A stretch of DNA of 64,000 nt from Chrysomallon squamiferum (Eukaryota > Animalia > Mollusca), in contig CM022674.1 of the NCBI GenBank assembly GCA_012295275.1, forward strand, positions 7,998,001-8,062,000, given 5' to 3'. Shown piece by piece: positions 37,847 to 43,800 of this stretch. Position numbers and translations under genes: made by a program. The notes below the pieces were generated by a model. It was not told the origin of the DNA and searched no databases. It saw nothing but the letters and a program-made list of their open reading frames with translations. The first letter of the stretch is position 1, and each line of letters starts with the position of its first letter.

Positions 37847-40800
37847 TTACACGCAGTCTTCCATCGACATGAGAAGTGGATTCACATAAACAAAACCATC
37901 AAACTCAGACTGGTCTATCTTGTCTATAACTTTCCTGTAAACAGATGTAAAGTAAAGATTTTAGTAAACTAAAATATAACAGATTATAACTGTAAATAAA
38001 TGTAAAATTAGTATTTCAAAAACCAGTATCTGAAATTATCCACTTCATTTAGTTATCTGAGAAGTTTGATTCACAATCATTACAACAGTAAAAACAACAA
38101 TTTTAATAAAAAAGTTCCAAACATTTAATAGAGTTCATGAAATCATTAATCTCACTTTAGCATTAAGTCTGATTTAAATAAAATAGCTAATAATAAATAA
38201 TAAATTTGTAATTTCAAGTATGAAAAAAAAAATAACAGAAAAAGAAAAGTAAACCCTGTGAGATAATTAATTTAATTAATACATATGTATTTTTTATATA
38301 TAAATACAACAAGCGATGGTTGTCAGGTGATTTACTTTGAATGGTAGAATTTTAAACATAGGAAGCTTATTTTCTTCATTGATATTCAAAAGTCATATAT
38401 GTATACCACAAAATTCTAATATAGCCAAATGCCGAGTGAAAACTACTACTCAGAATTTTTAACTTATTTATTATTATCATTATTAAGCTGAGATGCTGCT
38501 TACGGGTCGTCAGGGGTCAGCTCGACGGGTTCGTTAGTGAATGCAGGGTCGAAGTGATCCAGGTCGCGGTCAGACTTTATCACTGGCTTGTATGGGGGAG
38601 TTAACTGTTTCTGAGCTATGAGTTCCAGAAAAACCTGTCTGATGACAGCCCAAACGTTCTTTAGGAAGAAAAAAACACATGAAAAATTTATTAAATAGTA
38701 GTGTTACTGTTTCGTTTCTTATATCAAAAAAAGGAAAAAAAGTAATAAGTTTATGATAAATGTAATAACTCTATTTATACAACAGCTGTCTGTGTAACAA
38801 TTGTATCAAACACACACAGCCCCAACCCTCCTTCTCTCTTCAAATAAGATTTATGTGGAAAATTGATCATAAACATTTCTTTTAGCTAATTAATAAGCCT
38901 ATTGTAGGATACTGAAAATATAAATAAAAAAAATAATTTTAACCATTTATTATTAAATTAATGTGACTTTGTTAAGAAATTAACTGAATATAAATTGTTT
39001 CATTCATTAAAAAAATAACTCACCTTATTCAAGAAGCCTTTTAAAATGGAGGCTGCCTTCACAGACAGTGACCGAGGGATACGAATTGTCTTTTCCAGAA
39101 TAACTGAAATGTAAATCTCAACGTAACTGACAGTACACACACCAAAATGTTAACTAGATTTTTTTACCTTTATGTTATTATAGAAAGGATTAAAAATAAT
39201 AAAAATAAAATTAATTTACTGTATGATAGTTTTGTTATATGTTTATGCTTTATTTACAAATGTTTTAGTATTACTGTTTTTAGTTTTTACTTTGGAATAA
39301 ATAATCTTCAGTGTTCTGGTCTGGGTTCTCTGCATTTCCTACAACATCAAACGGAGACCTGCCCGCCAACATCTCAAACATCAACACACCCAACGCCCAC
39401 CAGTCAACTCCAAAATCTAAAATCAAACAATAATAACATAATAGTAGTACTAGTAATATTAATAATAACTAAATAAAATATAATGAAACTAAAATAAAAA
39501 TAACGTAAAATAAAATAACATAAAATAATAATTCTGCAAATTAGAAATCAACATTGTTTTTAAAATGAACAACATTAATGAAAGAAAATTTAATTAAAAA
39601 ATGAACATCCAGTATTTAACAATATAACATGAACTAACATCACAAAAAAGAGAGGAAAAACAGAAATCAAACACAAAAGAAGTAGTTAAATAAAATTTTA
39701 ACTGACAATTCAAGCTGAAATGTATACAAGAAAAATCTCAAATTAAAACAATTACAGATTAAATTCAGTATTAAAAGAAGAGGGATTTTCAAGATGCACT
39801 AAACTGAAAATAAATTTTTTTAAACATTACTAATCAAATAGTAGTATTTCACATAAATATATATCATTCTGATTTAAGTAATTTGAAAAGTACTTTCTTC
39901 ACTATCATATTATTTACTTTTACTATTTGAAATGTAATCATTGATAACTGAGACTTATTAAGTGTATAAAATAAATTAAGTCATTTATAAACACTAACAT
40001 GTATGTTATTTTCCATGATGCTCTGTATTACCTATGTAAACTAACAAGTTAACTGTACTGATTACCCTGATGCATATAAAGTAAAAAAGTTATCAAAGAC
40101 ATTCTAATGCATACTGTTTAATACAAATCAGACCACATTTTCTAAATACTATGTTTTTACCTGCACAGTCAGTGAATGACTTGTTATTAAGAACAGTAAT
40201 AAATTATGTTAATTAATTAATGCTATACCATAGTCCTCTCCTCGGAGAACTTCGGGGGCGATGTAATTCGGAGTGCCACAGAATGTGTTGGTTTTATCAC
40301 CAGGCAGTAAACCCTCCTGTGAGTGAACAGAGTAAAAACTGTTAACATGATCTTTTCCCATCACCTTTGTCATCCACACCAAACTCAGTTCTGCAGAAAT
40401 CACTCACCAAACAAATAAACATAAGAATTCTTTTTTTTTTTTTTTAATAAAGAAGTCCCCCATCAAATTTTTTTTTAAAAAACATAAAAATAAAATAAAA
40501 TATTTTTATAATAAAATGATTAAAGTATTCTATTATTATGTTGAATGAAGCAAGATATTTAGTAATTCGTGTGAAAAATCCTTGATGCCAGCAGCAGCTT
40601 TTTGAATGTTTGAAATTCTGCAGAACATCAGTTTGATGTGAATTTTAAAAAAACCTTGATTAAACTGAAAGAAAGAACTAAAAGGTTAAAGAACATCAAG
40701 AGGAAGAGGCAAAAGCTTCAATGAAAATGTAACAGATATTGTTTTATTAATGTCCATTAATTTTTAAAGCTGACATCAAATCAAGATAATGTACATTTCA

Positions 40801-43800
40801 GTCATTAAAACCAATGCCTGTCTCTTGAAGAAACAAAGATAAACAAAGGTAAAACATGGTTAGAAGAGAGGAACAAGGTAACAACATGCTTGTGTTCAGG
40901 AGATGAAAGCAAATCTAAGATTATTGTTTTTCTGTGTTATTTGTGGCTCTATACATCAGAATGTTATAAGCAGAAATCTCTAGCAAACCAGACACCATGA
41001 TGAACAAACAGTGCAATGAATGTCAAATGTTAATATTAACTGAGAATCCTGTTCCAGAAATGTTTTGGATTTTTGAATTATGATGGTTTTTTAGTATGAA
41101 GAAATAACTTAATAAGTCTAAATGCAAAACTCATTGATATTTCATATACTTTGCACAGAAATTCTACATCTGTTTTATATAATTAGGTTTTTTAAACACT
41201 AATATATCATAATCTTGGATTTTGGAATTTCAGGTAAAAGATCCTCAATGATATTAAAAATGAAATGTTAGATATCAGAGAATGTTAATATTAGAAATGA
41301 AATATTTGATTCAGCAAATTTTGGTCAATGCAAAATGTAAAAACTGAATGACTATGTTTAATGCCACCTCAACTCACTATAGCTGGTGACAAGAAATAAA
41401 GCCTGAACAAGAATGATATCAAAGAAGAAACAGCATAGCTGTTCATTACAATACAAAATACATTTTAAAACCAGACAGAGAACACTTGCTGGAATGGTAA
41501 AAAGAGGCAGCTGTTTGAAAGTGTTTAAACGTATCATTCTTGCAATGTGAAATCTAACGGGTGGACTTCACTTTACATCTCACTAAGTGTTAGTAATCAG
41601 TGTCATTCAGTGTGCTTGGTCAGCAAGTGTAAAAATGATAAATATTAGTAATGAACAAAATCAAGGATGATGAATTTCAGACAATCCTTCAAGCATCCTG
41701 TAGGTTACCAAAAAGAAATTATTTTAAAAAAAGTAAAAAGATGTAAGCAACCAAAGTAAAAATATTTGTTTCATCTCCTACAACTTGGGAGGGGTTACAC
41801 CACCACAACCTACCATAGTCTTCACCTCTCAGTATTTCAGGGGCTATATAATTTGGAGTGCCACAAAAAGTTCCTGTTGTATCACCAATACCAAGTCCTT
41901 CCTGATGGTGAAAGTAAATTATCAGATAAAAGTTTGCTGTATCTTGACCCAGCTCATGTCATCATCAATTAAAACCTGACATTTAACTGTCTATAATAAC
42001 ACTGTAATTGGAATTTATTTCTTACCTAGTTTCTTAATATTCCAAAATTTCAAATACTACTGAAATACAATCCAGCTCCTTTTAACATTTTAATAGTAAC
42101 TATTTCATAACCTAGATTTCTACATTTCAGAAACAGTAAGTTGAAACAGAACCTAGCAAAGCATTCTAGGTAAACATATTAAAAAAGAATAATATGGAGA
42201 GATATACATGCACAGTTATAATTTTAATATGTATCTGAATTTGGTTAATTTAAAAAAAAAAAATTCTACAGATATATTTATAATGTCACAGTATAGCATG
42301 TTTTTCTAAAGCTAGCTAACAAACAGTGAAAACTGTAACATAGCCATAGATGAAAAAAGTGAAAATGAACAAAAAACACAGTTTGATGATTTAAATAGTG
42401 ATGAATGAAGCAAGCAATGATATGATTACATGAGAAAAATTATATGAATGTTAACATGAGCACAAATTTGATAACTGACAGTGACATAGATCTTAGTAAT
42501 GCACTGAAAAATAATTTTCTAAAATATATTAAAGCTACTCTATGATTTAAAATGGATATGGAGACATGACAAGATTATCTGTACTGTTAACATGAGCACA
42601 CAATTTGAAAACTGAAACACACATACATCTTAGTAATGCAACAATATGCAGTTATATAATTTAAAAATGTAATAATAATAAAATAAGAATTTATTTTTAT
42701 GAAATATGTAAAAAAAGAAGTTAGTAATTTTTAAAATGACTAACTTGTTTAGCAAACAATTTATTTACTTACAGTTAATTAACAACATTATAAACTTTAC
42801 TTCGTAGAAAGAAGATTATATTCACACTGCTTATTTAAATTAATTTAATAAACAGTTTATTTATGTTTAAATTTATAACTGTTCTCAAGTTGCTCAAGTA
42901 TAGCACAAATTTATTATACAGTTTAATTAGATACTTTTATCTTAAAATATTCTGTTCTTACCTTGCACATTCCATAGTCTGTAAGCTTGATGTGACCTTC
43001 TCCATCTAACAAGACATTGTCAAGTTTCAGATCTCTGTATACAATACCTGAAATGTTAGAACATGATTCAAAATAATGAACATATGTAGACCATGAATAT
43101 ATCTGTATTTGTTGTGAAAATGAAATAAAGCAAATAAAGAGTAAATAGTTACATAAACAACTATCATAACTTGTTTACAAATTCACAAAGGATTTTTAAC
43201 TTGATGTTTAACCTGAACACTGAGATTCACTGACAAAAAAAAAGTAACATTAAATGTTCAGCAAGATTACTACCTCAAAGTGTTATATCCTTTTACACTG
43301 AAACTCAAATAGCAACTATTCAAAAATTAACAAAAGCATATTTATCAACACTGAGTTGAAGACGATATACATATACTCACAGAACTTGTGGAAGGTAGTG
43401 GATTTTTTTAATGCAGTTCAGATTTTGGACTGTTATTAAACCCTTTGATCTGGATGGTTAACAGGTAATGTTTATGCTCAAGGGATTAATATTTTTACTA
43501 TTATCAATTATGTGTTGTTTTTATTAGTAATGGTGAGCTCATCAGACATTCAGACAATCAGCTTGTATTTTACAAAGGCATCGGATTTAGTGCTATTTCT
43601 TCCTGTTGAATTGGCTTTTATGGAATACATATTTGTGTGAAAGTTTGGGGTTCAAAGTGTTAAAACTGTTGCTAGTTTTGTGAAGAATGTTATATTTTAC
43701 CTCTTTCATGAAGAAAATTGAGTCCAAGGCAGATTTCTGCTGCATAGAAACGTGCATGATCTTCAGGTAAACGTCTCTGTCTCTGCATGTGAAACATCAA

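Follow-up and report, generated by a model that had tools for sequence, protein, structure and literature searches.

The substitution of one tandemly duplicated exon for another is a well-described class of splicing event (Martinez Gomez et al.; PMC9741552, PMC8373072). In kinases, ancient homologous tandem exons that are swapped and kept under purifying selection are known from MAPK8/JNK1, MAPK14/p38, FYN and PRKCB, and in the human swaps looked up the exchanged segment follows the activation segment in MAPK8 and MAPK14, belongs to the C-tail in PRKCB, and falls in the SH2 linker and N-lobe in FYN. The accessible tables of both papers hold no entry for human PRKCI or PRKCZ, and Drosophila aPKC (atypical protein kinase C) is entered as having a tandem duplicated exon by gene name only, with the exon unspecified (Table S4, PMC9741552). 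For the aPKC of Aplysia and Helix, the accessible text of PMC6539039 describes only hinge inserts and a C1 deletion as splice forms. Here we report, in a 64,000-nucleotide (nt) stretch of the Chrysomallon squamiferum genome (contig CM022674.1 of assembly GCA_012295275.1, positions 7,998,001 to 8,062,000; hereafter the window), an aPKC gene with two tandem, conserved versions of its activation-segment exon, A and B, most likely spliced one or the other into two kinases that likely differ in activation-loop phosphorylation or in the contacts of the loop. The swap belongs to the same gene family and event class as the Drosophila case and, unlike the human kinase events looked up, holds the phospho-Thr and the P+1 loop. 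The mechanism itself is of a known kind.

The aPKC gene is complete in the window, with exon blocks mostly 85-100% identical to the aPKC of Gigantopelta aegis (tblastn). The Gigantopelta orthologues carry PB1, a single C1, kinase and PKC C-terminal domains and no C2 domain (Pfam), as expected of an atypical PKC, and the top PDB match of aPKC is PKC iota (E 3.7e-286). Both exons predicted by the initial annotation were found on the minus strand (Table 1), each 88 nt long, encoding the expected 29 residues, preceded by a pyrimidine tract and CAG and followed by GT. They correspond to E402-Y430 of human PKC iota, T412 included. A six-frame motif scan of the entire window finds the activation-segment exon exactly twice, with no third copy, and the introns around and between the copies measure 1060, 1497 and 812 nt. 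Besides the exon pair, a repeat search of positions 39300-43100 recovered only an intronic tandem duplication of 136 nt and chance matches in AT-rich sequence.

Exons A and B are identical at 62 of their 88 bases and at 24 of the 29 residues they encode, with 16 of the 26 base differences at third codon positions and different codons used for 14 of the 24 shared residues. The proportions of synonymous (pS 0.77) and nonsynonymous (pN 0.15) differences (pN/pS 0.19, Fisher p 4e-7) bear out the earlier proposal of purifying selection on both copies: synonymous sites are saturated between them, and replacement sites are not. The residues that differ surround the phospho-Thr; unchanged between the copies are the phospho-Thr itself, the Thr two positions earlier and the P+1 loop through the APE motif. 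Over 300 nt, the flanks of A and of B are no more alike than shuffled sequences (112 of 200 and 56 of 200 shuffles score as high), so A and B are not a duplicated haplotype, a misassembly already considered unlikely at the outset.

Either exon alone keeps the reading frame, and both or neither breaks it, as had been predicted from the exon length. A transcript with A and B meets a stop 6 codons into B, and one with neither copy meets a stop 12 codons into the next exon, in each case well upstream of later junctions. One copy or the other would be spliced in, with the frame safeguarding exclusivity and with A+B or skipped transcripts presumably removed by nonsense-mediated decay. That A and B are alternatively spliced at all is, in our judgement, hardly in doubt.

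Named isoforms of relatives were drawn from three homologue searches and 30 clusters, with at most 15 members listed per cluster; a species with one type among those listed is no evidence of loss. Of 25 gastropod rows (the window among them) 10 show both types, as do 13 of 19 bivalve rows (Magallana gigas and M. angulata counted as one), and each type is also found in open reading frames from assembled sequencing-run contigs. A Pinctada gene model holds both types in tandem, A then B. Among 69 species-level variants, all 28 of the B type have Asn before the phospho-Thr (P-1) and Val after APE, and the remaining 41, of the A type, all have Gly, Ser or Cys before the phospho-Thr and Ile after APE. 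Lys or Arg at P-3 is present in 25 of 28 B variants and none of 41 A variants (counted by eye from the variant table). The earlier statement that the isoforms differ just N-terminal to the phospho-Thr is right for the fixed P-1 difference; it misses the Ile/Val difference after APE, which is equally fixed. A likeness of the B loop to PKC theta, also proposed earlier, is slight: theta is the next-best PDB match of exon B, far behind PKC iota (E 1.9e-7 versus 1.3e-12).

When isoform pairs were picked for differing exon type, 20 of 21 (from 18 species) were equal in length, with all of their 4-8 differences inside the 29 residues; the remaining pair differs in length. In Gigantopelta aegis, models X1 and X3 carry an A exon matching that of the window at 28 of 29 residues, and X2 carries a B peptide identical to that of the window. 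The Aplysia orthologue, PKC Apl III / PKM Apl III, was cloned with an A-type exon (NP_001191516), as found in two of three RefSeq models; the third (XP_035828559) is B, and the Aplysia B form is known solely as this model. Four caenogastropods have B only among the isoforms listed. The oysters Ostrea and Magallana have three exon versions, the third of which (P0354-P0367, P0050) alters otherwise constant post-APE residues (Gln for Arg, His or Leu for Glu). Lingula has two versions, neither of the B type, and single versions are found in Octopus and Argonauta (Asn + Ile), a chiton (Asn + Met) and Lineus. Cephalopods have a single version in 14 of 14 named isoforms having the segment, with a one-residue loop deletion, Glu at P-3 and Asn at P-1 (P0238, P0240, P0231).

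Genomic support comes from a metagenome scan, of which the best 80 of 298 matches were kept, giving 75 loci. Two intact tandem copies are present in 18 of the 75, with AG/GT at 36 of 36 copies. Two bivalve-like loci among them, L042 and L062, share the order of the window, A ahead of B. In group 1 (11 loci, of which L035 and L037 are apparently the same DNA) and group 2 (5 loci) a Met-type copy comes first and an Ile-type copy second. The flanking exons of the two groups returned no firm match to a named protein; the longest group-1 loci are closest to Met-type proteins. Second matches in L011 (spurious) and L027 (a truncated repeat) were not counted. The intron between copies measures 318-3715 nt in 17 loci besides the window. 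Per-copy analysis of 17 loci and the window, with L037 left out, reveals that each copy is conserved within groups 1 and 2 (pN 0.003-0.06, pS 0.53-0.78), and that across the mollusc loci the two copies have pN of 0.10 and 0.09 versus pS of 0.96 and 0.77 (3 pairs each). The pair is real, old and widespread.

Two coral-like loci spanning both neighbour exons (L004, L016) hold the same 88-nt exon once, so a single exon is likely the ancestral state. In insect-like loci such as L048 no intron precedes the segment, and a cockroach model (P0305, Periplaneta X5) has a second version of the C-tail turn-motif segment; on these grounds the duplicated exon of Drosophila aPKC is probably a different one, perhaps in the C-tail. 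Trees of the 29-residue exon part B from A (support 91/83 and 99/90), with labels drawn from two of those columns. Cephalopods group with B in one tree and the chiton stands beside B in another, neither placement being firm. Given the linked signature residues and the same order, the simplest reading is that the pairs of gastropods and bivalves go back to a single one, formed before the two lineages split. That split dates to the Cambrian. Doubling or tripling of the same exon in several lineages suggests that the loop is a repeated target of splicing control.

Of 11 sequencing runs listed, two are RNA (X8 and X9, both from one study). The contig comparison covered positions 37700-40400, a stretch that includes exon B and excludes exon A, and our reading is based on the contig pieces listed, contigs being prone to drop rare forms. 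In both runs the loose end 5' of B is the reverse complement of the end of the upstream exon, so A is skipped there. One unbroken X9 contig holds B and the downstream exons, and the X8 contig pieces overlap at the junction of B with the downstream exon. Of the junctions that the initial annotation proposed to look for, 42962>40316 is seen in X8 and X9 and 40229>39416 is continuous in one X9 contig, with the A junctions outside the covered stretch. Its larger claim, that one gene makes two catalytic isoforms, is thus upheld directly for B in the RNA of this species and by the A/B pairs of gastropods and bivalves; for A it leans on relatives, among them two Gigantopelta aegis models (X1, X3) with a near-identical A exon and the mRNA cloned from Aplysia, which suggest that A is used in this species as well. 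Run X10, from a second organism, holds a B-like exon with intron flank that has 9 differences in 83 bases, the 4 listed being synonymous in our reading. Low-depth RNA contigs of both X8 and X9 read from B into the next intron (39852-40258), as do Haliotis asinina X3 and P0025, and reflect either pre-mRNA or retention of the intron that follows B. At 38626-38666 (minus strand), within a C-lobe exon of aPKC, RNA contigs have 83 bases against 40 in the window, and one DNA contig also departs from the window there; the assembly seems to lack ~41 coding bases, and perhaps an intron as well, likely through an assembly error.

At the protein level, the swap would yield two kinases of the 587-residue class and, going by Aplysia, also two PKM fragments. 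The step at which they would differ is phosphorylation of the activation-loop Thr, or contact of the phosphorylated loop with substrates and inhibitors. In PKC iota, Par3 K+4 and substrate R+2 contact pT412 (PMC4998004). With the phospho-Thr, the Thr at P-2 and the whole P+1 loop as far as APE in common, A and B are probably both PDK1-primed, active kinases, and the swap probably a tuning rather than an on/off switch. Some functional difference between the A and B forms seems to us somewhat more probable than none. In PKA, the P-3 residue Arg194 allows autophosphorylation in bacteria and is not needed by PDK1 (PMC2823524), and the B exon of the window has a basic P-3 (Lys) as in this self-primed type of loop. 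By analogy, the P-3 Lys/Arg might make the loop of most B forms a substrate for basophilic kinases or for aPKC itself, an idea that we regard as doubtful. An AlphaFold2 model of the Gigantopelta B form (36 sequences) had a mean pLDDT of 47, with the kinase C-lobe below 50, and was not used.

The most far-reaching version of this scheme is put forward tentatively. Lophotrochozoans would switch the activation loop of a single aPKC by splicing; the B loop would free the kinase and PKM Apl III from strict PDK1 priming, or alter inhibition by Par3/KIBRA; and the pair (a set of three in oysters) would be older than the snail-clam split, a brachiopod and two further animal groups having pairs of their own that are either parallel or ancestral. 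If true, splicing here takes the role that separate iota and zeta genes play in vertebrates, and memory research in Aplysia, built on the cloned A form, would have overlooked a second catalytic form.

Several observations speak against our interpretation. Most of the isoform pairs are RefSeq models, and exon A is not seen in the RNA, in a covered stretch without A and an unbranched X9 contig with B only. Without the two label columns the A/B support in the trees is lost, and the tree needs 4 changes versus 1 (13 when shuffled); because the split depends on these columns and 29 columns are too few, the trees do not decide between one and several lophotrochozoan origins. A basic P-3 is missing from 3 of 13 bivalve B variants (venerid and myid) and from L042 and L062, and is present in some single-version aPKCs (Hydractinia, Watersipora, Bemisia), so P-3 cannot be the universal point of the swap.

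The alternative that survives best accepts A and B as true alternatives whose proteins work alike, the pair being kept for tissue use (regulatory subfunctionalisation) or for tuning of mRNA level via decay. It is a reasonable minority possibility: catalytic and P+1-loop residues are all shared, only 4-8 residues differ per pair, and cephalopods and the four caenogastropods show one version each among their isoforms. It is countered by the signature itself, Asn + Val versus Ser/Gly/Cys + Ile, which is fixed in 69 of 69 variants in two classes despite saturated synonymous sites and which drift alone would not easily keep. We consider it improbable that only B is used in this species, with A a decaying relic. 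B alone does appear in the two RNA runs, over a stretch that excludes A, but A has an open frame, intact splice sites and a pN/pS of 0.19 against B, and it is nearly identical to an exon used by two of three Gigantopelta models. The stitching of two haplotypes or paralogues by the assembly, to which the lesion elsewhere in the gene near 38626-38666 might lend colour, is given practically no chance, being already refuted by the same-order pair in independent genomes of relatives and opposed by the unrelated flanks, the saturated synonymous sites and the presence of ~0.7 of the words of the whole stretch in five DNA-type or unlabelled runs.

Splicing factors would choose which of the two copies is used, by tissue or stage. 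Steric hindrance as the basis of exclusivity is ruled out by the 1497-nt intron between the copies, and U2/U12-type exclusivity was rejected since the donors of the window do not fit the U12 consensus. For docking/selector RNA pairing, two of the three intron pairs scored ~1.5-2 kcal/mol better than any of 8 shuffles, which at so small a number is suggestive at best, and comparison by eye with the flanks of L042 and L062 gave no match for a conserved intronic pairing element. Rbfox-, Nova- and QKI-type motifs occur near the exons of the window at chance level. Upstream of A as of B, at a distance of 40-65 nt (41930-41965 and 40350-40378, minus strand), stand similar purine-rich stretches with GATGACA, TGGG and AAGAT in order, which may be left over from the duplication or may represent an element common to the two copies. 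In group 1, the 150 nt that follow the second copy contain ACTAAY, a QKI/How-type motif, in 7 of 10 loci (L017, L019, L023, L024, L031, L035, L061), and those that follow the first copy in 0 of 10, against a background of 0.08 per 150 nt, the loci being kin and not independent. In group 2, a conserved TAACAGCATGCA element (branch-point-like + GCATG) stands ~30-40 nt before the first copy in 5 of 5 loci (L002, L005, L007, L028, L039), and a loosely similar AAC..CATGC precedes exon A in L042 and L062. The separate hinge microexon (Table 1) sits in the region where Aplysia splice inserts encode a calpain site.

Our literature search found no account of the swap, and the initial annotation likewise knew of none for a molluscan aPKC; subscription papers were mostly outside the search, and catalogues of Drosophila or mollusc exons in supplements could list it. 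The activation-loop alternative is unmentioned in the accessible mollusc aPKC passages of PMC6539039, PMC13282866, 10.1101/620633 and PMC7104321; the accessible part of PMC12000136 does not mention PKC, and six text supplements of PMC7954323 have no aPKC entry. Both versions (three in oysters) are already present as X1, X2 and X3 among the mollusc RefSeq models named 'protein kinase C iota type-like', automatic and unlabelled entries in which the swap, its age and its signature residues are not remarked on.

Table 1. Positions of aPKC features in the window.
Feature	Position	Strand	Basis
aPKC (PKC iota type) gene, coding span for PB1, C1, hinge, kinase and C-tail	48918 to ~37847	-	tblastn with Gigantopelta aegis aPKC; Pfam on that relative
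Hinge microexon, 15 nt (TVKVE), separate optional insert	45016..45030	-	AG/GT flanks; in Gigantopelta X1, not in X3
Constitutive upstream exon with phase-0 donor, from catalytic loop to DYG motif	42962..43047	-	3' end continues into exon B in RNA runs X8 and X9
Exon A, activation segment: Thr at P-3, Gly at P-1, Ile after APE	41814..41901	-	Sequence; Gigantopelta X1/X3 match 28/29 residues
Exon B, activation segment: Lys at P-3, Asn at P-1, Val after APE	40229..40316	-	Spliced in RNA runs X8 and X9; peptide identical in Gigantopelta X2
Constitutive downstream exon, helix F onward, phase-1 acceptor	39291..39416	-	Contiguous with exon B in RNA contig 22 of X9

The window is AT-rich (27% G+C) and holds further genes. 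On the plus strand, a glycosyl hydrolase family 9 gene occupies ~175-19750 (Pfam E 2e-17), with a satellite of ~24-nt period in its introns (roughly 2500 to 18200, with a 200-N gap), and a 6-phosphogluconate dehydrogenase gene at ~27740-34920 (Pfam E 9e-20) lies tail to tail with aPKC. Exon-like stretches at 55500-58600 and 62425-62604, also on the plus strand, likely belong to a membrane transporter, with no Pfam match on the piece tested, and to a TPR protein, with a weak Pfam match.

aPKC is the core kinase of cell polarity and, in the form of PKM, a leading if disputed candidate for maintaining memory, with much of the work done in Aplysia. The conserved B form changes residues next to the priming phosphothreonine, at the place where substrates and the inhibitory arm of Par3 bind (PMC4998004). 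It may therefore be that constructs, primers and antibodies to the phosphorylated loop detect one form only. The swap is a natural experiment on which activation-loop residues matter.

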